NCBI GenBank assembly: GCA_018401955.1
Contig: JAGYJT010000002.1
Coordinates: 27,723-91,722 of the forward strand
Source: Chitinophagales bacterium
Lineage (GTDB): Bacteria; Bacteroidota; Bacteroidia; Chitinophagales; CAIOSU01
Length of the DNA stretch: 64,000 nucleotides
Direction of reading: 5' to 3'
A program made the position numbers and the translations under genes. Shown here piece after piece: positions 624 to 23,426 of this stretch; position 1 is the stretch's first letter; each line of letters begins with the position of its first letter. The notes below the pieces were generated by a model. That model was not told the origin of the DNA, made no database searches, and saw only the letters and a program-made list of their open reading frames with translations.

Positions 624-812
624 ATGAAAACAAAAATCATTGCAGGCTTGGTAGCCTGTATGACAATTGTAGGAGCTTATTCCTTTACTTCCTCATACCA
701 CGAACCCGATTGCCAATATGGTCAATGTTCTAAAATAAAGACTGACGGCTATCAATGTAGAAGCTGTAGGCAGGAAGGAAGCTATTACTGTTGGAGTCAT
801 CGCCCTTGGTAA
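624..812 (+). CDS. Small secreted protein with Cys/His zinc-finger-like C-terminus (DUF5763-like)
   Basis: Signal peptide then QCSKIKTDGYQCRSCRQEGSYYCWSH. Confidence 0.65.
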   Translation: MKTKIIAGLVACMTIVGAYSFTSSYHEPDCQYGQCSKIKTDGYQCRSCRQEGSYYCWSHRPW

Positions 813-838
813 TTTCTTTCATTAGCAAATTTTTAGTT

Positions 839-1228
839 ATGAAACATTTATGTGTTTTAATAGTACTCTTATGTTGTTTCAGCTTTGAAGGTTTTTCACA
901 AAGGGGGATTCAATACACCCCTTATGTAGAAAACTGGGATAAAAACCTAGCTGGTCAAGCACTTTTGCAAAGACAAGCCCAATACGACCAAAATAGAAAT
1001 AAGATACAACAAAAGGTAGAGGCTATAAAGGCTCTATTTGCACAGTTTGCTGGTGCCTACCAGTATAATGAGTCAAGGTTTAACAGCCTAGCGGTAGACT
1101 TCGACTACTTTACCAATACAATGGTGCCCAGTATACAAGGTGATTTTGGTGATACAAACATCTTTTACTCATGGTGGAATTGGCTGGATGAATATCAATA
1201 CAAATTAATCAGAGAATATTCTAACTAA
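839..1228 (+). CDS. Hypothetical secreted protein
   Basis: ATG at 839 gives MKHLCVLIVLLCCFSFEGFSQ signal peptide. Confidence 0.7.
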   Translation: MKHLCVLIVLLCCFSFEGFSQRGIQYTPYVENWDKNLAGQALLQRQAQYDQNRNKIQQKVEAIKALFAQFAGAYQYNESRFNSLAVDFDYFTNTMVPSIQGDFGDTNIFYSWWNWLDEYQYKLIREYSN

Positions 1229-1460
1229 CTTTACTAAAAACCAACTTATGCTTTTTATCAAAATAGATGGAATTGATTTCCCCATCCACAGAATCAGCCA
1301 AATCAACAGGTAATAGATGCAAGCATTGTATAAGCAATTCAGGGGACTTGTATTGTTATCAGCACGATTAATGAAAAGTATCTTGCTTGTCTCGTTATCA
1401 TATGGGGGCAGTTCCTAGAATGATATATTATTGTTAATTCAAAAAGTAACGGCTAGAAAA

Positions 1461-1709
1461 ATGAGCAAACTTCTTAGAAACTCACTTATCATTTGGGCAT
1501 TGTTGACCCTATTGATGACCTACGTACCCTATTCTGCAAATAAAGACGGTACAAGTTATGCAAACCCAATCTATAAGACATTAGAGGAGCAACGCAACCC
1601 TACATTGCTATTTTTTAGACTACTACCTGTGGGTGCATTATTGGCAGGGCTTATTGTGGGCTCAGGGGCAACGGTGGTTTACTTTACTGGAAAAAAGAAG
1701 AGTCAATAA
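1461..1709 (+). CDS. Hypothetical two-TM membrane protein
   Basis: ATG at 1461; two hydrophobic segments and a basic tail. Confidence 0.6.
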   Translation: MSKLLRNSLIIWALLTLLMTYVPYSANKDGTSYANPIYKTLEEQRNPTLLFFRLLPVGALLAGLIVGSGATVVYFTGKKKSQ

Positions 1710-1726
1710 CCATTTAAACTCATCCT

Positions 1727-2107
1727 ATGCGATATTTATTTTTTTCAGCCTTTATACTTTTATTTGGTTTAAACGTTTTTGCGCAAAACCAGCGCCTTAG
1801 TGATAAATATATGGCTTACAATCTTACTTCCCTATCCTTAACGAAAGTTATAGATGAAAGCGGTTTTAAACCTAGAAAAATCACTAGCGATGCTACTACT
1901 TTTAGGTCTTTGGTTTTACAATTGGATAACCAAACCATTCAGCAGCTTAACATCGATACTTGGTGGTTATGTTCCCAAAAGCACGAGGAAAATTTTCAGA
2001 TATATAATATGTACTACAAGCCCATAAGCAAGGTATATTTTGACGCAAACTGTAAGGAGTTAATTGCGTTAATGGAAATTGATGGCACTGTAATACAACC
2101 CAAATAA
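1727..2107 (+). CDS. Hypothetical secreted protein
   Basis: Signal peptide ending VFA-Q. Confidence 0.7.
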   Translation: MRYLFFSAFILLFGLNVFAQNQRLSDKYMAYNLTSLSLTKVIDESGFKPRKITSDATTFRSLVLQLDNQTIQQLNIDTWWLCSQKHEENFQIYNMYYKPISKVYFDANCKELIALMEIDGTVIQPK

Positions 2108-2139
2108 TCGAATAAATCCACACCTTTTCATATAGTTTT

Positions 2140-2409
2140 ATGGTTTTAATCAAAAGCTCAATAGTCTTAGAAGGTATTTCTACTGCAATTACCTTATTAA
2201 TTATTGTCCCTATTTTTTTAGCGTTTTCACTGTTATTTGGTCGTTTAATTCTACACGCTCTCAAAGTAGCGGAATTCGAAGGAAGTAAAAACGGTATAGG
2301 ATGGAACATTTTGGCAATAATAATCGGTGCAATACCAGCAATTATTTTTATAATAATCGCAAATAGCTTTGAAGTTTCAGACAGTCAAATTAGAGGTTGG
2401 CCTGAATAG
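2140..2409 (+). CDS. Hypothetical membrane protein
   Basis: Two TM helices, same orientation as neighbouring cargo genes. Confidence 0.55.
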   Translation: MVLIKSSIVLEGISTAITLLIIVPIFLAFSLLFGRLILHALKVAEFEGSKNGIGWNILAIIIGAIPAIIFIIIANSFEVSDSQIRGWPE

Positions 2410-2720
2410 TAACTTCTATTAAATAGTACTAACCTACCCCATTGGCTACAATGGTAAGCTAATATTTAGTTTATAATACCATTGCTTTTTGGGGAATACT
2501 TATCAGTCGAAAACGGCAATTAGAAATACTATTTGCATTCGTCACAGAACAAAAGTGGATAGACTGGTTTAGCTGTAAAGTGATATTCAAAACCGTAAAG
2601 AATTAGGACAATACAACTTGTTTGAATTAATAAGAGGTTTCTATTAACTTTATCATTAGCCTGTCCGCTTTAATATGCAGTTACATTTAGGGTTTTTAAA
2701 CTATTGAAGAAAAAATTTAC

Positions 2721-3092
2721 TTGGCTAGACAACTTAAAATAAATTTATCAAAAAGGAAAAAGGGTTATAAAGACCTGCCTATAGAGATAAAGTCAATTAT
2801 TGAATTAAAGCATGAGCAAACATGCCCAAAGAACCTAATTGAAGGGGCAAGGCAATTTATAGATACAGACGGGAAAACTATTAAGGATGTATTGCGAGGG
2901 CTATACATTACGGTAGAGAAATGTCCAATTGATTGGGAAGCAATTCTAGCATTAGCAGCACAAGCTAACGGTAAAGAATCGCTACCCGAACCAATTATGG
3001 AGTTAATATTGAAAAGGTACCAGCTAGAGCACTTAACTTGTGAAATAAGTGCCTTATGGGATTGGCTTGATGGAGTACCGGAACATCTTTAA
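2721..3092 (+). CDS. Hypothetical protein
   Basis: 123-aa ORF, TTG start after A-rich leader, stop overlaps convergent gene. Confidence 0.55.
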   Translation: MARQLKINLSKRKKGYKDLPIEIKSIIELKHEQTCPKNLIEGARQFIDTDGKTIKDVLRGLYITVEKCPIDWEAILALAAQANGKESLPEPIMELILKRYQLEHLTCEISALWDWLDGVPEHL

Positions 3093-4726
3093 GCGGCCAA
3101 TTCGTGTATTACACAATCCACGCACCAAGGGTCAAAATGTAATTCGGGAGCTTTTGGTAAGTAACGGGTGAACACCTCCTCAACCTTTGCCTTTAAAGCC
3201 CATTTAAACCGCTCCTGAGTGGTTATAGAATCGTGAATGGTAAATACTGCCGCTTCGGGGTTTTCATCGCAAAACTCCCTTGTAATGACTTCAAGTACAA
3301 ACCAAGCTTCTAAATACTGTAATACCCTACTAAACATCTTATAGCCATCTTTTTCAATTGTGCCCTGTGGAGATTGCTTAACAGTGCAAACGAACTCGTG
3401 GATATTAGGAAAATAGGCTTTAAAATACGGCTCTAGGTGATTGTTTTTCATTTCCCCACCAATGTATCTTACAAACAATGCTTTTGAACAAGCCCTTCCC
3501 CTTTCAACTTCGCTTGGGTACTTTGCTAAAGGGAATTGATAATCCAAAGGCTCGTAATTAATCTTGCCTTTTGCCTCAGTGGGCAGTTTTATATAGTACG
3601 GATAGATATCACCCCAAGCTCCTATATTAAAATCGTGAGCATGGTAATAGATACTACCTGACGATGTAAGATTAAAGAACATTTCCAATTCCTTTTCAGG
3701 TATGCTAGAACCTTCTAAAATCGGGGGTATAGAAAAAGCGCACATAATGGTTCTATGTATTTCCTTTTCCTCTTTTCTCTTTCCTTTATCCTCTTTCTTA
3801 CCTTCCCCTAAATCATATTTTTGGCATTTTTTGGAAATTTGGGCAATTATTGGTGTAATGGCCTCTTTTCGCAAAAGTATGTTCATTAAATATGGCTGGC
3901 AATTCTTTATATCGAGTGATACAAGGGTATCCCCTCTGTAATTCAAAAATTTTCGAAAATCTGACTTTAGGTTAGTGATAGGCGTTGATAGCCTGTTTAC
4001 CTTATCGCTAATTGAAAACCTGCCATCACAATCTTTTATGGCATTTATCTGACTGCAATAAATCTTATACAGCTTATCGTCAATTACCCCGTCCACATCA
4101 GTGCAAAGCGTTCGGGCATAATCTTTACAATTGCTCTCATCAACATACAACCCTTTATAGAACCCACGGAATAGATACTGATGGCTATCAATAAACTGTT
4201 CGTTAAGTAGCTTCTTATTGGCCTTTTCAAGTGCCCTATCTACCATTGGCTTTGGTATCCTTTCTCTATAGGTTTTGCGTGTCTGAAAGTACTTTTTATT
4301 AAAGGTGTGACGTTTGGAATACCTATCGGATTGATATGAACTTCCCAAATTAAGCACCCTACAATCGCAGAGATATTTAAGATACTCACTGTAATGATTA
4401 ACTGCTTCTTTCAATATTACACTATGGACTGAGGTTGTTAAGTAATCGGGGGAATCAATGTCGGTTTCCATATTCCTATATAGAATATCTACCAGTAACT
4501 TGAGCCTGTTCAAGTTTGGTTTAGTTTCTTCCTTAAAACGCTTTGAACTCTCTAGTGGATATTTTTCCAGCAGCTTGTTAAAGTCCAGGCCACTAGGTAA
4601 CTCGAACATCTTTCTGCCCCCTATTACCCTGTTAGCTGGTATATATTCAAAGGTGTAACTGTTGTCAACCTTTAAACTTTGATTATCCGAATTGAAGTCA
4701 TTGTTTTTATGTAGATTTCTGTTCAT
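3089..4726 (-). CDS. Divergent family-A-like nucleic acid polymerase (TV-Pol-like), putative replication protein
   Basis: NRLSTPITNL; motif A LVSLDIKNCQP; O-helix-like RACSKALFVRYIGG; LQYLEA; motif C TIHDS. Confidence 0.7.
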   Translation of the reverse strand: MNRNLHKNNDFNSDNQSLKVDNSYTFEYIPANRVIGGRKMFELPSGLDFNKLLEKYPLESSKRFKEETKPNLNRLKLLVDILYRNMETDIDSPDYLTTSVHSVILKEAVNHYSEYLKYLCDCRVLNLGSSYQSDRYSKRHTFNKKYFQTRKTYRERIPKPMVDRALEKANKKLLNEQFIDSHQYLFRGFYKGLYVDESNCKDYARTLCTDVDGVIDDKLYKIYCSQINAIKDCDGRFSISDKVNRLSTPITNLKSDFRKFLNYRGDTLVSLDIKNCQPYLMNILLRKEAITPIIAQISKKCQKYDLGEGKKEDKGKRKEEKEIHRTIMCAFSIPPILEGSSIPEKELEMFFNLTSSGSIYYHAHDFNIGAWGDIYPYYIKLPTEAKGKINYEPLDYQFPLAKYPSEVERGRACSKALFVRYIGGEMKNNHLEPYFKAYFPNIHEFVCTVKQSPQGTIEKDGYKMFSRVLQYLEAWFVLEVITREFCDENPEAAVFTIHDSITTQERFKWALKAKVEEVFTRYLPKAPELHFDPWCVDCVIHELAA

Positions 4727-5292
4727 ACTTTGTTATCATTTTTTAGGTTAAATGATAGTTTAGCATAGTCCAAAAACCACCGATAATTTAAATATTCTGT
4801 TATTGCTAATGTGGAATTTTCGCAATTTACGGGAATATGAAAAGTGATTGACTCGGTTGAATATTCGATTGAATGAACCCCAATATTTTCAACTAATACT
4901 TGCTCTCTTAAATTACGAAATGCCAAATCAGATATTTCAGAATAGAAATCAGATTGTTCAATAAGAATAGCGAAAGCTTTTTCTAGGAATGGCAATGCCT
5001 TTGGAAACTGTTCATGCAATTTACTTATGTTGCAAGAATAGCTTACAAAGTTGTTATTTACGGTTGCATTAAACAAAGGAAACTCATACAATTGAGCTTT
5101 CATTTTAAAATACTGCTCTTCAGCTTCAGGGTCTTCTAATTCAAGTTTAAGCGCATCACAAAGGCTTGAAAATAGTGACCTGTTGCTTTCAGATAGATTA
5201 ATGTCAGCTAATATTTCTTGATTAAAAGGGGAATCAAGAACCTCAAAAAAGACTACCTGTTTCGGATACTTTAAAGTTAATATATTACCCAT
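4723..5292 (-). CDS. Hypothetical protein of the element replication operon
   Basis: 189 aa, overlaps both neighbours (translational coupling). Confidence 0.65.
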   Translation of the reverse strand: MGNILTLKYPKQVVFFEVLDSPFNQEILADINLSESNRSLFSSLCDALKLELEDPEAEEQYFKMKAQLYEFPLFNATVNNNFVSYSCNISKLHEQFPKALPFLEKAFAILIEQSDFYSEISDLAFRNLREQVLVENIGVHSIEYSTESITFHIPVNCENSTLAITEYLNYRWFLDYAKLSFNLKNDNKV

Positions 5293-5575
5293 TTTGCCCT
5301 CCCATTTTAAGGGTTATAAAGGCTGCATCAATCTCGGACTTTTTAAAGCGTGGCTGGCCTCCTATATAATGCTTTTGCAGGATGCCTTTGTTCGACCATT
5401 CGTGAAGTGTTGTATTGCTTATAGCAATGTACTTACGAGCCTGTGTTGGGGTAAGATACCCGTCATTTTCGAGGGGCGTGGGAGGCTTGTGTTCTTTTAG
5501 AATGTTTCTGACTTCCTCGCTAATAAATAGTTTTAGGGTGTCAATAAATGAAGGTTGGAAAATTGCTAAACTCAT
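5285..5575 (-). CDS. Excisionase-family (HTH_17) DNA-binding protein
   Basis: YLTPTQARKYIAISNTTLHEW...IGGQPRFKKSEI winged-HTH pattern. Confidence 0.9.
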   Translation of the reverse strand: MSLAIFQPSFIDTLKLFISEEVRNILKEHKPPTPLENDGYLTPTQARKYIAISNTTLHEWSNKGILQKHYIGGQPRFKKSEIDAAFITLKMGGQNG

Positions 5576-5686
5576 AGGCTTTGCAGTTGTTTTAGTTAAA
5601 GAATTCAGCCATCTAGCTGATTTACAACTGCAATACTAAATATTAGCTAATTGGGACTACAATAGTGGGAAGATTTCGTTCCCACA

Positions 5687-6835
5687 TTAATTTTTATAGA
5701 AACGATTTGCTACAAATTGACCACTGTTTTTAGGGAATTTTTCTAAAAGAATTTTGGTAATGTTTGCTGAATCGCTAACGAGGGGGTTGTAGGCTTTGTT
5801 AGGATGGTTTTTTTCATTATAGTATCTCAGAAAATTATCTTTCACCAGATGCTTATTAACGGGTGCTGTTAATTCGGCATGAAACAACTGATGTAAGATT
5901 TGAGGGATTGTTTTTTTGTAATTACTTGAAAATTCCAGATGTTCTATAATGCCTAGAACATGGCATAAAACATAAAATTGTGTTTTCTCAAACAGCTTGG
6001 TATTAATAGGGAAGTATTTTCTTATTATGTATGTATCTTGAGCTAGCATGCGAATAAACAAATCCTCGCTGACATTGAATTTTTTTAAATAATCTAATAG
6101 CAAATAATGACTTAGAATGTGTTTTACCCTTACAACTCTTTCATTAATTGCATTTGAATTGGATAAAGATAGTTGCTCAAGTTTTTCCTTTGCTATTGGG
6201 TGATTAATATTGCTATACTTATCTCTTAACCATAGCAGCCTAGAATCAATTACTTTAATACTAAAATCTAAAAATTGCTTCAACACTAAATATTGGACTC
6301 CTTCTGTAGGAAAATTAGGGATGTTTGCAATGTTTAGAACAATATCCTTCTTAATAAAATATCCATCAATTACTTCCCCAAATGCTCTAAATTCTTGCTC
6401 AGCAAATCTTGCATTGGTTAATTTCTCTTCAAAGAGCTCAAAATGTGGTTTTGCATTTTCCATTAATACATCATCGGGAAATGGGCGTTCATTATAATAT
6501 CCCGAAAGGAAATAATCAGAAGTAATATATTCTGCAATCTCGTCATAGTTCAGAGTGTAGCGTAGTTCTTCCTCAGACTCACCATTTAACCACTTTTGGA
6601 AAACATCATCACTTACAACTTGCTCATAAATTTCACCATTCCCCCAATGACACCAAAGAATGCGCTTAATCTTTACAAATGCAGTGTTCTCTGGATATTT
6701 TTCTGGCTCTTGCGCATGATTCAAAAGGGCTTCTTCGCTTTTATAGACCCTACCAAAGGAATAAATCACATCCTGTAAATCTTCAATCGTTTCAATAAAT
6801 GGGAACGGATTAATAGTGATTTTGTCCTGATACAT
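5687..6835 (-). CDS. Hypothetical protein directly downstream of integrase
   Basis: 382-aa ORF, no motif recognised. Confidence 0.7.
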   Translation of the reverse strand: MYQDKITINPFPFIETIEDLQDVIYSFGRVYKSEEALLNHAQEPEKYPENTAFVKIKRILWCHWGNGEIYEQVVSDDVFQKWLNGESEEELRYTLNYDEIAEYITSDYFLSGYYNERPFPDDVLMENAKPHFELFEEKLTNARFAEQEFRAFGEVIDGYFIKKDIVLNIANIPNFPTEGVQYLVLKQFLDFSIKVIDSRLLWLRDKYSNINHPIAKEKLEQLSLSNSNAINERVVRVKHILSHYLLLDYLKKFNVSEDLFIRMLAQDTYIIRKYFPINTKLFEKTQFYVLCHVLGIIEHLEFSSNYKKTIPQILHQLFHAELTAPVNKHLVKDNFLRYYNEKNHPNKAYNPLVSDSANITKILLEKFPKNSGQFVANRFYKN

Positions 6836-6850
6836 AGAAGAGCGTTAATC

Positions 6851-8134
6851 TTATTTAAAAAACGAATTAGCGGCCAACCTATCAGCGGTTTGCTCTTTGG
6901 TAATCTTAATATACTTCAAAAGGTTAGCTTCCTTGGTATGGCCCGTTATTTTCATTATATCCAATGGGGCGACCCCTGCTAAGTACATCAACGTTGCACC
7001 TGTGCGCCTAGCCGTATGTGTTTTAACCATTTCGTACTTGGGCTTGTAGCTGGTTTCCCTCTTTCCTCCTATTGTAGCGTTTATTTCTACATTCTCATTC
7101 AATCCTGCCAACTTGCACACTTCTTTAATGTATTGGTTCAACTTTTGCTCGTGCGTTTTGGGCAGGTTAAAGTTATACTTTTTGAGTATATCTACTACCA
7201 GTGGTTTTAGTGGAATGATAACCTTTGTGTTAGTTTTGGTGGTATTAAGTTCTAGCACATACTTACCCTGCTTTTCCTTTACCATATCGCTGTGTATGCG
7301 TGAGTAATCGGAATACCTTAATGCCGTGTAACAACCTACAATAAACACATCCCTAACAAGTGCATAATTGGGCTTATCTGTAAGGTCCACTTTGCACATT
7401 GTTTCTAGTTCCTTCTCGGTTAAGTACACATTATCAGCATTTTCCGTTGGTGCTTCAAATGTGCTGTGCGAGTATATCAAATTGTTATGCAAACCTGCCT
7501 CAAAGGCATCTTTCATTATGACTTTGATAAACTTAATGCTCTTACCTACAGAGTTTATTTTGTAACCCTTGTCGTTTAAAAAATTCACAAACGAGCGATA
7601 AAAGTCCTTATCAATTGCATCAAAACTCAGTTTAGTGCTATACTCATTCAGCAGGGTACGAAAAGTAGTATAAGTTCTCATAGTACCCTTGGTGTACTTT
7701 TTACCCTTATATAGTTTCACCCCTTTTTCACACCTATCAATAAAATCATCTAGGTAACTATTGAAAGAGGTTATATCAACTTTTTTTATCTGTGGCTTGT
7801 ATATCTCGTCTAGCTTTTCCTTTAGCCTATCTTTTGTTACTACCTTATCGTATTTCAACAAGTCGGAAAGAATGCGGTTTGTGTCGCTTTCTAGGTTAGA
7901 GATTATAGCATTGATATTCTTTTGCTCAATCAGTATGTTAGCGTTTATAGCTTTATAGGGCTTAAGTGTTTCAGTTGCTACAATAGCCCTTTGCGTTGTC
8001 TTGTCAAACAATTCTGGTATTACCTTACATGGTGTGTAATATTTGAAAAGTCCTTCTCTTAGTTTAATGCCCATGTAAATCGATGATTCATCGGCCTTTG
8101 GGGACTTTAGGTAGAAGTTTGGAGTAGCTGCCAT
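6851..8134 (-). CDS. Site-specific tyrosine recombinase/integrase
   Basis: Catalytic motifs TALRYSD, TTKT, HTARRT, GHT, KYI; SAM-like middle domain. Confidence 0.96.
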   Translation of the reverse strand: MAATPNFYLKSPKADESSIYMGIKLREGLFKYYTPCKVIPELFDKTTQRAIVATETLKPYKAINANILIEQKNINAIISNLESDTNRILSDLLKYDKVVTKDRLKEKLDEIYKPQIKKVDITSFNSYLDDFIDRCEKGVKLYKGKKYTKGTMRTYTTFRTLLNEYSTKLSFDAIDKDFYRSFVNFLNDKGYKINSVGKSIKFIKVIMKDAFEAGLHNNLIYSHSTFEAPTENADNVYLTEKELETMCKVDLTDKPNYALVRDVFIVGCYTALRYSDYSRIHSDMVKEKQGKYVLELNTTKTNTKVIIPLKPLVVDILKKYNFNLPKTHEQKLNQYIKEVCKLAGLNENVEINATIGGKRETSYKPKYEMVKTHTARRTGATLMYLAGVAPLDIMKITGHTKEANLLKYIKITKEQTADRLAANSFFK

Positions 8135-10073: not shown

Positions 10074-11525
10074 TCAAACAAAAAACTTCTCATAAAATCG
10101 CATAGCGTTGCCGCTAAAGATTTTCTCCACCAGTTCTTCAGGTGTATAACCATACCAAAGTTCTTTATGAAAATTGTGTTTGTGCAAGTATTCAATCAAA
10201 TCACTTCGTAAAATAGGCATTTTAGCAGACGTATCATATGGGTCAACATGCGTAATGGTACCGTCATAATCAGTACCGATAGTTACCACGTCCCAACCGC
10301 TCTTTTCTTCAACTGCCTTCACTACTTGAAACATGTTCATCCAAATCATTTTGGTAAACTCTTCGCGTTGCTTGGCCGGGTCGGTAATTTTGGCAATGCG
10401 CTTTACCAGCTCAATGCTGCCCAAATTACCTTTATCCATCATTATACCAATCAGTCCTTCAGACTCATGGATAATGCGGATTTCTTCGTTACAAACGTTG
10501 ATGCTCCATTTATGAAAATGCCCCTTGGCACTTTTCTTTTGATTATCATTGGTGCGGATAGATGAAGCGAGGTCTTTATAACCATTTACCCCGCCATGAC
10601 TACATATTACCGGTATTTTATCATTAGGGTTGAGGTAATTGTAGTTTCTGATGAAGCCATAATACTCCATTCGCGAAGCTACACTCATGTGCTTGGTATC
10701 AATCAATATGCGCTTGCCGTTTTCGCGGCTCAAAAGCTCCCTAAGCACATGCCGACCAAGTTCGGTTAGGCCTTTATCTTTTCCTTTGTTTTGATTGATG
10801 ATGCCGTTTAACGCCCCTTTTAAACTAGTGGCATGGCCGCCTAATTGGTTCCAGAAATGGTGTGCCAAGTTAACGGTAAATGGTGGGTGCTCCCACTGCT
10901 TTACTTTGCGGATGTTCTCGCTCAACAAGGCTTTCATCTCCTCAACCGACTTCTTCTCAGTAGCTTTTACACCGCAACCAAATGCGTGGGCACCTTCAAT
11001 ACTTAGTATTATGGCAATGGTATTAGGCTCGTGGGCTACCACTTGCTCTAGCTCTTTGTAGTTGTTCACTATTTTATAAGCCAATTTACCATCCGGAGAA
11101 ACCCCTTGACCATTGGCTACATACTCATATTCCTTCTGCAAATCATCAAAGTAGCGATCATCGGTGTTGCGCAGGTATTTGATACGCTTGGGGTCCATGC
11201 CAGTTATCAACGAAATCATCTGTTCGCTGGCATTTTTGCTTATCATTAAGCTAGGCACATCACGAATTCGCAAAAAACCATGCTCCATTGGATATAGCGA
11301 TAGGTTAATAACGCGCACTTGCCCTTCGCTTAGCGCATATAAATTGCATTGCGAGTGTTTTAAAATTTGGGCACTATTCTTACGAATCATCCTTAAAAAG
11401 CCTGTATTGGCCTCACTGTGGTCAATACACTCCCATAGGTCGCAAGTAGGTTCTGGATGTCCGGAATGGAAAGATTTAAGATTAGGGTGGCAATGAAGAT
11501 CCACCATAAACGGTTTAATGCTCAT
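10074..11525 (-). CDS. Amidohydrolase-superfamily membrane-dipeptidase-like protein (peptidase M19)
   Basis: DLHCH, SIEGAH, IDTKHMS, CSHGG, IGTDYDG, GNAMRF motifs. Confidence 0.85.
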   Translation of the reverse strand: MSIKPFMVDLHCHPNLKSFHSGHPEPTCDLWECIDHSEANTGFLRMIRKNSAQILKHSQCNLYALSEGQVRVINLSLYPMEHGFLRIRDVPSLMISKNASEQMISLITGMDPKRIKYLRNTDDRYFDDLQKEYEYVANGQGVSPDGKLAYKIVNNYKELEQVVAHEPNTIAIILSIEGAHAFGCGVKATEKKSVEEMKALLSENIRKVKQWEHPPFTVNLAHHFWNQLGGHATSLKGALNGIINQNKGKDKGLTELGRHVLRELLSRENGKRILIDTKHMSVASRMEYYGFIRNYNYLNPNDKIPVICSHGGVNGYKDLASSIRTNDNQKKSAKGHFHKWSINVCNEEIRIIHESEGLIGIMMDKGNLGSIELVKRIAKITDPAKQREEFTKMIWMNMFQVVKAVEEKSGWDVVTIGTDYDGTITHVDPYDTSAKMPILRSDLIEYLHKHNFHKELWYGYTPEELVEKIFSGNAMRFYEKFFV

Positions 11526-11634
11526 CAAATTCAGGGTTTCAATGTAAAAGTAGCGTGTGCTTGTTAAACGCTAATATAAACGCTAGGGTTGCATGGTGCA
11601 ACTATAAATCGGGTAAATAATCGAAAGTATGGAC

Positions 11635-11835
11635 AAAAAAAATCCGGCGAAGGAACCACTCTTCGCCGGCATTACACAACTAACTAACCAACTATAACTT
11701 ATTATACTGTAAATGATAAAATTGGTTGCCCCTTTTCGCTGCTATCTACAAGGTATTTTTCTGCTTCGCACACATCGTCACACCTTACTATTTAAACAAG
11801 AGGCAACCATTTACCATTATTTGTCAGAACTATCT
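11635..11835 (-). ncRNA. Candidate structured sRNA A
   Basis: TATCTTTG promoter at 11841-11848, hairpin 11712-11818, terminator 11635-11670, no ORF over about 10 aa seen; ends approximate. Confidence 0.6.
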
Positions 11836-11877
11836 ACATTCAAAGATACGTAGCCAGAAAACTATAGTTTATTTTTT

Positions 11878-11906
11878 TCGTTAAACTATCAATTTCTATC
11901 GGTGAA
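11878..11906 (-). promoter_or_regulatory. 21-bp-period direct-repeat operator (LytTR-like) upstream of sRNA A
   Basis: TTCACCGA-N13-TTTAACGA, 29 bp upstream of the TAnnTTTG element. Confidence 0.6.
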
Positions 11907-11981
11907 TGAATGCAAATGTTTGATAGGCGCTTAACATTATCTTTTCATTAGGCATTTACCACTCGTACTTCATGTTTTGGC

Positions 11982-12211
11982 AAAAAAAATCCGGCGAAGG
12001 AACCACTCTCCGCCGGCATTACACAACTAACTAACCAACTATATCTTAATAACGCACAAACTTCAAAAATGTTTTACAACCAAAAGGTTTCCGCCCCTCA
12101 TTCTTCACTTTTTTAAGTATGTCCAATATTATTCGTTCACACACCAACATCCATACCTATCAATCATCGCTATATGGGGCGGCACCTGTTCGGTTGTTTC
12201 CCTATAAATAA
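11982..12211 (-). ncRNA. Candidate structured sRNA B (paralog of A)
   Basis: TATATTTG promoter at 12217-12224, hairpin 12076-12197, terminator 11982-12017; ends approximate. Confidence 0.6.
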
Positions 12212-12254
12212 CGATACAAATATACTACGTCAACGCAGTGGTTATCAACTCTTT

Positions 12255-12283
12255 TCGTTCAATTTCACATGTATATCGGTGAA
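12255..12283 (-). promoter_or_regulatory. 21-bp-period direct-repeat operator (LytTR-like) upstream of sRNA B
   Basis: TTCACCGA-N13-TTGAACGA, 30 bp upstream of the TAnnTTTG element. Confidence 0.6.
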
Positions 12284-12312
12284 CGGAAATAAATTGCAGA
12301 TAAAGGTGAAAA

Positions 12313-15300
12313 TTAATATTTAACGATACGCTTTATTGCGTGGCCTGATGTACCAACAAACCGAATTTGGTAAACACCTCCAGGCAAGCCGGATAAATCA
12401 ATGGTACCTTGCTGTTGGGTAACTGTTTCAGTTAACACCAAACGGCCATCGCTGCCGTATAATTGCATTTTCCCGTTAGTGGCATCAATAACATAACTTA
12501 TAATATTACTGGTTGGGTTTGGCCAAAGCTGCCATGTAACTTCAATAACTTTATTGATGCCAACACCTGTTACTTGTACCGTATTTGAAGTGAAGGTACA
12601 TCCATTACCATCGGTTACTATTACGCTGTAGCTGCCATTGGCCAGCAAACCATAACTGGTATCGGTAGCATTGGCAATGGTATTACCACCAAACAACCAC
12701 TGATAGTCTGCACCCAAATCGTTAACATAAAGTGTATCGCCAACCTGGGTAACAACCGGATTGATACTTTGCAACGTATTGATTGTAATTGGGTTGCTGG
12801 CATATACGGCCTCACAGCCAGCATTATCTTTTACCAGCACATTGTACACACCACCACCACCAACATTAAACAAACTCACGCCGTTTTGGAAAGTTGCCCC
12901 ACTGTCAATAGAATATAATATTGGGTTTTGCCCACCGCTAATGTTTACAGTAATGGTGCCATTATCGCCTGGGCAGTTGGGTTGTACCACTGCTACATTG
13001 GTAATGGCAAAACCTGCGCAACCATTTGCAGGCTGGGTTACCGCCTCGCAAATAGTAGCGGTACAGTTGCTTGCATCGGTAACGGTTACACAATAAGTAC
13101 CCGCACCCAAGTTGGTAAGGTCTTCATTAGTGGCGCCTGTGTTCCATACATATATATATGGCAAGATTCCACCTGTTGCTGTTAAGTTAATGCTGCCATC
13201 GTTGCCGCCAAACTGACTTACATTTACAATAGTAGTAGACAGCGCTATTGCGCAGCCAGGTTGCGTAACATTGGCACAACCAGTAGCGGTGCAAGCATTG
13301 CCATTGGTAACGGTTACACAATACTGACCGGCAGCAAGGCCACTAAGGTCTTCGGTATTTGCGCCATTGCTCCATTGATAATTGTAAGGTGGAGTATTGT
13401 TGCTAACCGTAAGGTCTATTGACCCATCAGCAGCCCCAGCAACCGATGTTGGGGTGGTATTAAAACTTAAACCAATAACTGCGGGTTGGGTAAGTGTATA
13501 TGGATTGGCGGGGGCACTGGTAGTACAACCGGCTGCATCGCGCACGCTTACTGTATAACTTCCGGCAGCAAGGCCCGTTATTGGGCTTGAGTTAACCCAA
13601 GTACTACCGCCATTTACTGAATATTCTACCGCACCAGTGGCACCTGTAACAGTAATAGTAATGCTGCCTGTATTGCCAGTGCTGCACAACGGACTGTTGG
13701 CTATTACACTGGTTATCGCCAAGTTGCAAGTAGGTTGTGTTACGTTTCCACAACCAGTAATGGTACAACCTGAAGCATCGGTTACTGTTACGCAATACTG
13801 ACCGCTTGATAAGTTATTTAGGTCCTCAGTACTTTGGCCTTGACTCCAAATAAAACTAAGAGGGGCGCTACCACCAGTTACAGTTAAGTTAATAGCTCCA
13901 TCGGCACCTCCAACAGTACTAACTGGGGTAACAGCAAAATTCAAACTCATAACTTGCGGTGCGGCAATTACCTGCGGGTTAGCAGTAGCACTTGCATTAC
14001 AACCAGCTGCATCGCGAACTTGCACGGTATAATTGCCGGGTGCTAAGCTTGTAAAGCTATTGCTAGCTTGCCAAGTACTTCCACCATTTACAGAATATTC
14101 AACTGCACCATTAGCGCCGGTGGTTGTTATCGTAAAACTGCCATTATCTACACCTGCACAAGTAGCATTAACTTTTCCTACCGAGGTTACTGCCAAAGCA
14201 CAGCTTGGATTGGCAAGCTGCACAATAGCGGTTGCATTGCAGCCATTATCATCGGTAACAGTTACACCATAATTGCCAGCGGAAAGACCAGTAATGGTAT
14301 CCCCTGTTGCATTTACAGGTGTGCCGCCACTCCAAGTAAACGTGTATGGTGCGGTACCGCCTGATGGCGTTGCCCAAGCCTTGCCATCGCTGCCCCCAAT
14401 GGTGGTTGGGTTGATGGTGCTTGTGGTAACAACTAGTGCCGATGGTTGGGCAATTACTGCTGGGTTGCTAGCATAGGTTATATTACAGCCATTGGCATCT
14501 TGAACCGTGATAGGGTAATTACCTGCTGGTAAACCGGTAAAGGTATTGCTGCTTTGAAAGCTGGAGCCACCACCTTGCAACACTTCAACATTATCAACTG
14601 CCACCCAATATGCGCTACAAGTATTGTAGCCACATGAGCTGTTAATGTACAATAGCATATCGCTTTTGTCAGCTAAAGTTGCGTTGCTGATATCAAATAC
14701 AACTTCAATTGCCTCGCAAGTTCGGGATTGGGTAAATGCCAATTGATTTGTAGCAACTCCATTAACGGTAACAGGGACAATAGAAGTATTTTTATAACCA
14801 TTGTTGATCCAAATACTAAATGTGATTTTATCATTCGGGCGACCCACATTATAAGAATGAGAAACGTCAAATTTTAATGACACCGTATTTAATCCCGATG
14901 CATCAGCTTGAGGAGTTCTAAGAAAACACCCTGAAAATCCTGTAGTTGTAGACCCTGGATAATAAGCACTACCATCCGGGCAGCCACCAGTAGCTTGATA
15001 ATCGAACCACTTGCCACCTGTGCATGAATTTGGAGAATAATACGCCGCAGTTGATGTATTGGAATTATTGATTACGTCCGAATCGAAACCCTGAGTTACC
15101 ACTAATGCTGGCCCTGTTGAACCTCCATTACTATAAGTAAACGGGCCAGTACCACCCGAAATATTAACCGTAAGTGAACCATCGCTGCCACCGTTGCACG
15201 ATACTGGGGTTGTGGTTACCCCGGTTATGGCTAGAGTACCGCATTGGCTATAAGCATCAATTGCAAAAACTGCAATTAGCAGCGTAATTAAAAGCGTAAA

Positions 15301-15318
15301 TTGTTGAAATTGTGGCAT
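12313..15318 (-). CDS. T9SS type A sorting-domain surface protein with SprB-type repeats
   Basis: Signal peptide; repeated GG..PY.Y.WS and L.AG.Y.VTVTD.NGC units; C-terminal WPNP...GVY...KRIVK. Confidence 0.92.
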   Translation of the reverse strand: MPQFQQFTLLITLLIAVFAIDAYSQCGTLAITGVTTTPVSCNGGSDGSLTVNISGGTGPFTYSNGGSTGPALVVTQGFDSDVINNSNTSTAAYYSPNSCTGGKWFDYQATGGCPDGSAYYPGSTTTGFSGCFLRTPQADASGLNTVSLKFDVSHSYNVGRPNDKITFSIWINNGYKNTSIVPVTVNGVATNQLAFTQSRTCEAIEVVFDISNATLADKSDMLLYINSSCGYNTCSAYWVAVDNVEVLQGGGSSFQSSNTFTGLPAGNYPITVQDANGCNITYASNPAVIAQPSALVVTTSTINPTTIGGSDGKAWATPSGGTAPYTFTWSGGTPVNATGDTITGLSAGNYGVTVTDDNGCNATAIVQLANPSCALAVTSVGKVNATCAGVDNGSFTITTTGANGAVEYSVNGGSTWQASNSFTSLAPGNYTVQVRDAAGCNASATANPQVIAAPQVMSLNFAVTPVSTVGGADGAINLTVTGGSAPLSFIWSQGQSTEDLNNLSSGQYCVTVTDASGCTITGCGNVTQPTCNLAITSVIANSPLCSTGNTGSITITVTGATGAVEYSVNGGSTWVNSSPITGLAAGSYTVSVRDAAGCTTSAPANPYTLTQPAVIGLSFNTTPTSVAGAADGSIDLTVSNNTPPYNYQWSNGANTEDLSGLAAGQYCVTVTNGNACTATGCANVTQPGCAIALSTTIVNVSQFGGNDGSINLTATGGILPYIYVWNTGATNEDLTNLGAGTYCVTVTDASNCTATICEAVTQPANGCAGFAITNVAVVQPNCPGDNGTITVNISGGQNPILYSIDSGATFQNGVSLFNVGGGGVYNVLVKDNAGCEAVYASNPITINTLQSINPVVTQVGDTLYVNDLGADYQWLFGGNTIANATDTSYGLLANGSYSVIVTDGNGCTFTSNTVQVTGVGINKVIEVTWQLWPNPTSNIISYVIDATNGKMQLYGSDGRLVLTETVTQQQGTIDLSGLPGGVYQIRFVGTSGHAIKRIVKY

Positions 15319-15403
15319 GGCTCTAATTTTGTGCAAAGTTATGTCAAAATAGAGTGTTTACAATGCCTTAACGTTGCACAAAACTGGGATTTTATACCAA
15401 ACT

Positions 15404-22942: not shown

Positions 22943-23056
22943 CTGCTAGCCGTTTGCTGTCAAAACTAACTAGTATAAAACATGAAGCCAAACAAATCCA
23001 GCAGAAACAGAAAACCCCGCCTTTGTGGGGCAGGGTTTGCGTTCTTTGGTTTGGGT

Positions 23057-23426
23057 GTGGAGCTGGAGGGATTCGAACCCTCGTCCAGCCGAGTTGCAGA
23101 AATACCTTCTACATGCTTAGTTACCTGTTAGTTGTCGGGAAAGCAGCCGGTCAGGGAACCCACCAACTACTTCCTTACACTCTTTATCTTACCGTTGCGT
23201 CAAGTGAAGCGCAACAGCCAGCACGATCTTCTCGATGCCCCTTTGGCGTACTGAACGTGCCAAGTCTACCAGGGACAAAGGCTATCTAATTCCTAGAATT
23301 AGGCAGCCATGGCGTAGTTGTACTCGCCGTATAAAAAGAGTGCGTGAGCCGGGATTTACGAGTCAACTCACCTCTCTCGGCATGCCAGTATAACTCCAGA
23401 CCTCGCTGTCAATTCCGGTCAGCCCC
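23057..23426 (-). ncRNA. ssrA: tmRNA, tag (A)GEYNYAMAA
   Basis: 5' GGGGCTGACCGGAATTGAC; 3' GGTTCGAATCCCTCCAGCTCCAC; tag frame at 23299-23328. Confidence 0.97.

Follow-up and report, generated by a model that had tools for sequence, protein, structure and literature searches.

OmrA and OmrB of enterobacteria are encoded by two adjacent paralogous small RNA (sRNA) genes, each with its own promoter and both under one response regulator (OmpR); they have conserved ends, a variable middle and a 5′-terminal seed, and depend on Hfq. The R1 region of GcvB presents a G/U-rich single-stranded seed that pairs with C/A-rich leader elements of many mRNAs, and in sRNAs of the CpxQ type, which come from 3′ untranslated regions (UTRs), the seed lies directly 5′ of the terminator of an mRNA from an envelope-quality-control gene. 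Within the Bacteroidetes, whose mRNAs are described in PMC6847099 as being without Shine-Dalgarno (SD) sequences, the account of the FopS/GibS sRNAs of Bacteroides thetaiotaomicron (PMC11697453) reports repression of translation by pairing beside start codons, with in-vitro translation among the assays used and one member derived from a 3′ UTR. Regulatory RNAs of Bacteroidota beyond gut Bacteroides are almost unknown, and the study of how sRNAs recognize SD-less mRNAs is only beginning. Here we analyze a pair of predicted sRNA units in a 64,000-nucleotide stretch of DNA (the window) from contig C66 of the Chitinophagales assembly G000 (3.49 Mb, 79% complete), together with five genus mates (G001–G005). 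We found that the pair belongs to a real, previously undescribed sibling sRNA family that is confined to one genus. On balance, sequence comparison inclines us slightly towards reading the two units as tandem members of this genus-restricted family that are predicted to act in trans as base-pairing regulators.

The locus shares features with each of these systems and is identical to none. Like OmrA/OmrB it consists of adjacent paralogs with their own promoters, conserved ends and a variable middle, but the proposed seed is terminator-proximal; the seed is G/U-rich as in GcvB R1, with no homology and with another architecture and phylum; and, as in CpxQ, a copy of the seed stands before an mRNA's own terminator, here that of a DegP/HtrA-like gene, although the seed also occurs in stand-alone genes and processing is only possible. 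The likeness to FopS/GibS lies in the phylum, in multicopy paralogs that have one seed and both intergenic and 3′-UTR-derived members, and in an encoded RRM protein; FopS/GibS have been shown to pair beside start codons of SD-less mRNAs (PMC11697453). FopS RNAs are set apart by the same description, being ~65–70 nt long with a 5′-terminal R1 seed and canonical promoters and occurring across Bacteroidaceae, whereas the RNAs predicted here span ~103 to 231 nt, mostly carry a long 5′ hairpin, have the seed on the terminator side and a dedicated upstream box, and occur in one genus.

Tandem units and their shared 3′ module

The two units lie head to tail on the minus strand in a 785-nt gap between an SprB-repeat gene and an M19 dipeptidase gene. 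Unit B would yield an RNA of ~231 nt (11982..12212), its start inferred from the promoter element and its end placed at a T-run, and unit A one of ~201 nt (11635..11835), with the start placed in the same way. The original prediction had positioned two boxes, TAnnTTTG elements, hairpins, near-identical tails and terminators on this strand, and every one of these elements was located where it had been placed.

Both RNAs end in a GU-rich stretch followed by an intrinsic terminator, and these tails are identical at 62/63 positions, as had been claimed. The 27-nt sequence TATAGTTGGTTAGTTAGTTGTGTAATG occurs exactly twice in the window (12043-12017 and 11696-11670; 0 expected), and the two copies form the proposed seeds of unit B (12017..12043) and unit A (11670..11696), which are unpaired in the minimum free energy and centroid folds of both RNAs. 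The terminators of unit B (11981..12016) and unit A (11634..11669) were recovered by an independent scan as stems at 12016-11991 and 11669-11644, with 9 bp, an 8-nt loop (AGUGGUUC) and a T8 run.

Comparison across the genus showed strong conservation of this module. Across 13 box-driven units, five 3′-UTR copies of HtrA type and locus L038, the core AUAGUUGGUUAGU does not vary, and the whole 63-nt module has hardly changed in four species whose flanks and 5′ parts diverge. In G001 and G002, three of the ten terminator pairs have changed on both sides while the loop AGUGGUUC stayed the same. Terminator stem cells were paired in 93.3% of cases, compared with 32–72% when the partner was slid, and the covariation score was matched by 0/500 shuffles, although kinship of the sequences inflates this score. 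Small open reading frames (ORFs) were not conserved across units, and 4/13 units had no ORF of at least 8 codons, which agrees with the earlier remark that the mini-ORFs are not conserved. At the sequence level, the units thus combine their own promoter, an intrinsic terminator, non-coding content and an invariant core that is unpaired in predicted folds, bearing out the claim of a conserved 3′ module with a single-stranded seed.

A tandem pair follows the same SprB-like gene in all five genus mates, and G001 has a third full unit on a separate contig, giving 13 box-driven units in six genomes and 2–4 copies per genome, which supports the view of a paralogous family whose members each have a promoter-like box of their own. 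A covariance model of the 3′ module matched 6/18 genomes of the family, all in genus g1, and 4/151 genomes in a sample of the order, where the matches fell in 1/82 genera and the module was found in 0/81 of the others. Rfam models, those of 6S and 6S-Flavo included, gave no match in the window at the gathering score or in the loci of seven relatives, so the RNAs could indeed not be assigned to a described family. A scan of JGI metagenomes returned three matches, one of which is a true copy, and the metagenomes that contain the locus come from lake and salt-lake habitats. On a metagenome contig (L223, 451-493), a lone unit whose promoter and 5′ part are of B type directly adjoins the sequence found past unit A in G003 and G004, an arrangement suggesting that one unit was lost when the identical tails recombined.

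The core is also found outside the units. In 5/6 genomes the same 23-nt core, with a different terminator, lies ~50 nt past the stop codon of a gene for a protease of DegP/HtrA type (Trypsin_2 and two PDZ domains); this copy was not found in G003 (91% complete). A shorter version follows an aldehyde dehydrogenase gene in G001, and a fourth, diverged seed-like tract, ATAGATGGTTAGTTAGTAGTTAGG, stands with a terminator 2 nt past the stop of a 310-aa ORF in G000 (C2:14509-14580, +). None of the 3′-UTR copies has the box, and their terminator loops differ from AGUGGUUC. Reuse of the core with other terminators argues that seed plus terminator is the working module.

Similar tracts are widespread at lower complexity. 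A search of 16/64 parts of the contig collection with TAGTTGGTTAGTTRKKTG gave at least 122 loci in many phyla, mostly (GGTT/AGTT)n simple repeats, and among those listed the type-C copy of G004 (L156) was the only true relative. Two loci in Aquimarina (L046, L069) and one in a Bacteroidales metagenome-assembled genome (MAG; L103) have a GU-rich TAGTTGGTTAGTT-like tract between a stop codon and an intrinsic terminator, the layout of the 3′-UTR copies of the genus, though they belong to distant Bacteroidota. In nine further loci of Bacteroidota and Saprospiraceae MAGs (L040, L049, L064, L090, L107, L126, L135, L137 and L158), (GGTT/AGTT)n is followed by complementary (AACC/AACT)n in long intergenic hairpins that are unrelated to the sRNA family and could represent pairing in cis of GU-rich tracts with A/C-rich leaders.

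These distributions bear on an alternative in which the GU-rich tract and hairpin form a cis-acting terminator or 3′-UTR module, serving termination, 3′-end stability or pairing with its own leader, and the units are short transcripts with little function in trans. The core lies directly past the stop codons of three unrelated genes in the genus, and the Aquimarina and Bacteroidales loci repeat the arrangement, as such a module would; stand-alone units with a conserved activator-type promoter that is shared with a protein gene, and a 63-nt module that is virtually constant in four species, argue the other way, and we regard a purely cis-acting role as improbable. The RNAs could also serve as a protein sponge, titrating an RNA-binding protein, such as an RRM protein, that binds the GUU(R) words and the unvarying loop of the terminator, in the manner of CsrB/RsmZ. 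The stretch is low-complexity and (GUUR)n-like, with 4–5 GUUR repeats, and AGUGGUUC remained invariant while the stem varied. G000 encodes one RRM_1 protein, a member of the family of the FopS partner RbpB, which is described as binding single-stranded portions of FopS sRNAs (PMC11697453). Each RNA has one such stretch, compared with the many sites of known sponges, the 3′-UTR copies have other loops, and a protein partner would be compatible with base pairing, making titration as the principal function an unlikely explanation.

A promoter box shared with a PAS-only gene

Each unit is preceded by a box of two direct 8-mers with a 21-bp period, TTCACCGA-N13-TTGAACGA in unit B (12255..12283, minus strand) and, by pattern scan and comparison of units, TTCACCGA-N13-TTTAACGA in unit A (11878..11906, minus strand). 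When up to two mismatches were allowed, the pattern TTCACCGA-N13-TTKAACGA matched the window at exactly these two places (12283-12255 and 11906-11878), compared with 0.06 expected. A further phased 8-mer lies 21 bp 5′ of each box (TTTATCTG, TTTATC-like, at 12297..12304 in unit B; CCTATCAA, from the unit comparison, at 11920..11927 in unit A). Downstream, TATATTTG of unit B (12217..12224) lies 30 nt past the box and fits the consensus TAnnTTTG, which we take to be the Bacteroidota promoter element; its counterpart in unit A, TATCTTTG (11841..11848), lies 29 nt past the box.

This architecture was retained throughout the family. All 13 units have TTCAYCGR and TTnAACGA phased by 21 bp, with TTTATCnn exactly 21 bp upstream in 9/13, and the spacer between box and TAnnTTnn is constant at 29–30 nt. 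Within G000 (3.49 Mb) the strict box was confined to the two sRNA units. A loose pattern gave 17 matches in the relatives, 11 of them sRNA units and the other six followed by neither seed nor promoter element, and a reversed control pattern gave 11. The same box, a 29-nt spacer and TAnnTTnn precede the gene of a 128-aa PAS-only protein in 6/6 genomes, and when G000 was scanned with a weight matrix, the promoters of the two sRNAs and of the PAS gene ranked highest (54, 52 and 40; next site 28). Its recurrence at the same spacing before the PAS-only gene indicates that the box is a shared promoter element located outside the RNA, and a genuine cis element common to the sRNA units and this gene. 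The suggestion that the RNAs are signal-induced fits a box of this kind, which does not itself demonstrate induction.

Response-regulator activators of the LytTR or OmpR type typically use phased direct repeats two helical turns apart, placed before a weak core promoter. The 8-mers at −21, 0 and +21 bp form direct repeats about two turns apart across the 13 sRNA and six PAS promoters; the link to a LytTR- or OmpR-type family is our presumption. The fourth-best box-like site of G000 (score 28) stands before genes for a 1411-aa multi-PAS/GAF histidine kinase and a NarL-type regulator (L221; C35:63275-67640, −), and this candidate regulator was rejected, its ortholog having been found only in G002 and without the box.

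At the PAS locus of G000 (C1:59503-61205, −; L214 and L220), a PorP/SprF gene comes after the PAS-only gene with the box, and four genes for proteins with type IX secretion system (T9SS) sorting domains lie nearby. In relatives (L005–L009), the SprB-like gene has a perfect intrinsic terminator, GCGAGGTTCAAC-gaaaaga-GTTGAACCTCGC plus a T7 run, and the second half-site of the unit B box falls within it, so that gene terminator and sRNA promoter overlap; the counterpart of this terminator hairpin in the window is degenerate.

A variable 5′ hairpin

The 5′ part of each RNA in the window folds as had been described, into an outer helix, an internal loop, an inner stem and an apical loop. Hairpin B (122 nt; 12076..12197, minus strand) has an outer helix of 23 pairs including bulges, and hairpin A (107 nt; 11712..11818, minus strand) has outer arms that are both invariant in four A-type orthologs. 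Compared with dinucleotide shuffles, z-scores of the whole RNAs were −3.99 (RNA A) and −2.68 (RNA B). The length of the quasi-continuous helix was matched by 4/150 shuffles for hairpin B and 6/150 for hairpin A, only moderately more than chance, and the longest uninterrupted helix did not separate the real hairpins from shuffles.

A hairpin was present in 9/13 units and missing from unit B of G003, G004 and G005, where the 5′ part is 67 nt and AU-rich, and from unit A of G002, where it is 41 nt. Hairpin length was 107–110 nt in 7/9 despite very unlike interiors, and the outer helix of 14–23 pairs enclosed 59–73 nt in 8/9 hairpins and 29 nt in the remaining copy. This helix has a G+C-rich core, CCGCCCC/GGGGCGG or, in the A type, UUGCCUCU/AGAGGCAA. 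The interior, comprising bubble and inner stem, was not conserved between paralogs; neither the two arms nor the apical block GAUGUGUGCGAAGC varied in the four A-type orthologs. The original prediction held that stem sequences differ with pairing retained, and by eye the paralogous arms do differ at many positions and still pair. A fair covariation test could not be built on this, because the arms of A-type orthologs are invariant, leaving no covariation to count, and the paralogs can be aligned only by using the structure. MAFFT with RNAalifold on the nine hairpins yielded 0 pairs, which we ascribe to alignment failure, and a separate alignment of the arms depended on the chosen ends and so does not constitute independent evidence of covariation.

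The hairpin had been proposed as a 6S-like stem-bubble-stem domain, that is, a ~108-nt rod that mimics an open promoter or otherwise serves as a polymerase or protein decoy, with the tail as an add-on. The near-constant hairpin length, the regular enclosure by the outer helix, the open interior of most copies and the conserved arms and apical block of the A type would suit such a decoy. Canonical 6S RNA was not found elsewhere in G000 either, which favors the idea weakly, given the 79% completeness and an RF01685 control that was silent in all genomes. The domain is dispensable, being absent from 4/13 units including unit B of three species; a closing stem, central bubble and terminal stem were not common to all members, with 29 to 73 nt enclosed where the hairpin exists; and RF00013 and RF01685 were unmatched at E-values up to 10 in window positions 11300-12500 and up to 5 in the loci of the seven relatives. 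6S RNAs are also constitutive, usually single-copy and not known to have an activator-driven promoter and a seed tail, whereas these units have a promoter of inducible type and a terminator-proximal seed. The 6S-like assignment is therefore not supported, and we consider a decoy of this sort very unlikely. Absence from 4/13 units points instead to an accessory, lineage-variable domain that would contribute to stability, processing or a second function, and the rod may have a protein-binding role.

Predicted targets and the surrounding locus

Under the trans-acting interpretation, an activator, plausibly a response regulator bound to the helically phased direct repeats, would likely switch on the sRNAs and the PAS-only gene together. 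The GU-rich stretch beside the terminator would then act as a seed, pairing with A/C-rich leaders just 5′ of start codons, presumably the place of ribosome loading in these SD-less bacteria, and so block translation. Function would reside in seed plus terminator, perhaps freed by processing; the core recurs with a different terminator in the 3′ UTRs of the DegP/HtrA-like gene and two other genes.

We compared the seed with 2636 start regions of G000, which has the traits of Bacteroidota (T9SS genes, TAnnTTTG-type promoters and start regions that are A-rich and G-poor). Duplexes of −16 kcal/mol or below numbered 138 for the seed and 25–100 for nine control seeds. Hexamers complementary to the seed peaked at −18 to −7 of predicted starts (307 and 274 per bin vs. 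a genome background of 77), and AACCAA, TAACCA and AACTAA ranked within the 25 most frequent 6-mers of positions −24 to −1. The best site was a 17-bp duplex in the leader of a collagen-repeat gene (C94:4333; −27 kcal/mol), spanning roughly −19 to −3, with complementarity kept in 5/5 orthologs at −15.8 to −19.6 kcal/mol, scores that correspond to about the top 5–6% of G000 start regions (5.2% reach ≤ −16). Among PorP/SprF paralogs, 5/18 had duplexes of −16 kcal/mol or below (ranks 4, 14, 19, 54 and 130, three of them in the top 20; control seeds 0–1), an enrichment spotted post hoc with a rank-test p = 0.09, and we treat the PorP/SprF link as a lead only. Blocks of 9 + 12 nt, separated by a 2-nt bulge, complement the seed in the part of a gene for an 819-aa T9SS cargo protein (L233; C57:38454-38480, +) that encodes the C-terminal sorting domain (−29.3 kcal/mol); a search of the relatives gave no ortholog of this gene.

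Several results weigh against regulation in trans by this seed. The reversed seed gave 100 strong duplexes to the 138 of the seed itself, and 38/300 composition-matched shuffles equaled the enrichment of seed words at starts, indicating that this enrichment is mostly compositional; exact 10-mer complements showed no excess (134 sites vs. ~120 expected). Tracts like the seed are common simple repeats in many phyla, and because such low-complexity tracts are so widespread, its recurrence in 3′ UTRs could be partly convergent. The best PorP/SprF site is lost in 3/4 readable orthologs, a target site at a 97-aa gene on C132 was rejected for lack of conservation in orthologs, and proteins with signal-peptide-like sequences were not enriched among predicted targets (34.8% vs. 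34.5%). No cognate regulator is adjacent to the box-driven genes, and the sole box-like site beside a two-component system is not conserved. Single-sequence support for the hairpin is modest (z-scores −0.4 to −3.9), and for the nine units with a hairpin the helix length was matched by 2 to 55 of 150 shuffles. None of the runs on record as RNA contained the sRNA region, and in run X20, which we guess to be RNA, a 240-nt contig overlaps only 11979-12055, has unlike flanks and extends past the terminator, and is uninformative on expression. Pairing with targets is itself a prediction, as are the candidate targets.

A broader proposal would join these elements into one scheme, in which a general GU-rich "anti-leader" seed, equivalent in Bacteroidota to the C-rich anti-SD seeds that other phyla have, is aimed at the A/C-rich loading zone of SD-less mRNAs. 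A single activator bound at three sites would control its release from stand-alone genes, the htrA-like mRNA tail would contain it as well, genes of the cell surface and of type IX secretion (PorP/SprF paralogs and cargo genes) would be retuned, and the ~108-nt rod of most copies would have a second, protein-directed function. Taken as a whole, this scheme is speculative and doubtful. The locus nevertheless provides a compact comparative case, with a box common to sRNA genes and a PAS gene that hints at a small regulon, a terminator-adjacent seed, reuse of that seed in 3′ UTRs and a 5′ domain that is variably present between species; its value is limited by an uncultured genus, a family confined to it, and transcripts and targets that are predicted only.

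The genes flanking the pair are, upstream, that of an SprB-repeat protein with a T9SS C-terminal sorting domain (12313..15336, minus strand), syntenic with unit B in 6/6 genomes, and, downstream, that of an M19 membrane dipeptidase (10074..11528, minus strand), where the flank past unit A varies by species. That the units are instead a DNA-level repeat, such as a recombination or integration site or the remnant of a mobile element, is highly improbable: the variable flank, the metagenome contig with a single unit fused to the flank that follows unit A elsewhere, and an integrase element 3.5 kb downstream would fit, against which stand constant upstream synteny in 6/6 genomes, promoter-to-terminator orientation throughout, compensatory changes in the terminator stem that indicate selection on RNA, only 2–4 copies per genome and the non-adjacency of the integrase. 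That probable integrative element (791-8134) has a tyrosine integrase gene (6851-8134, −), an HTH_17 excisionase-like gene (5285-5575) and several ORFs without a Pfam family. Elsewhere in the window, at 23055-23426 (−), lies a tmRNA gene (RF00023, 139.6 bits).

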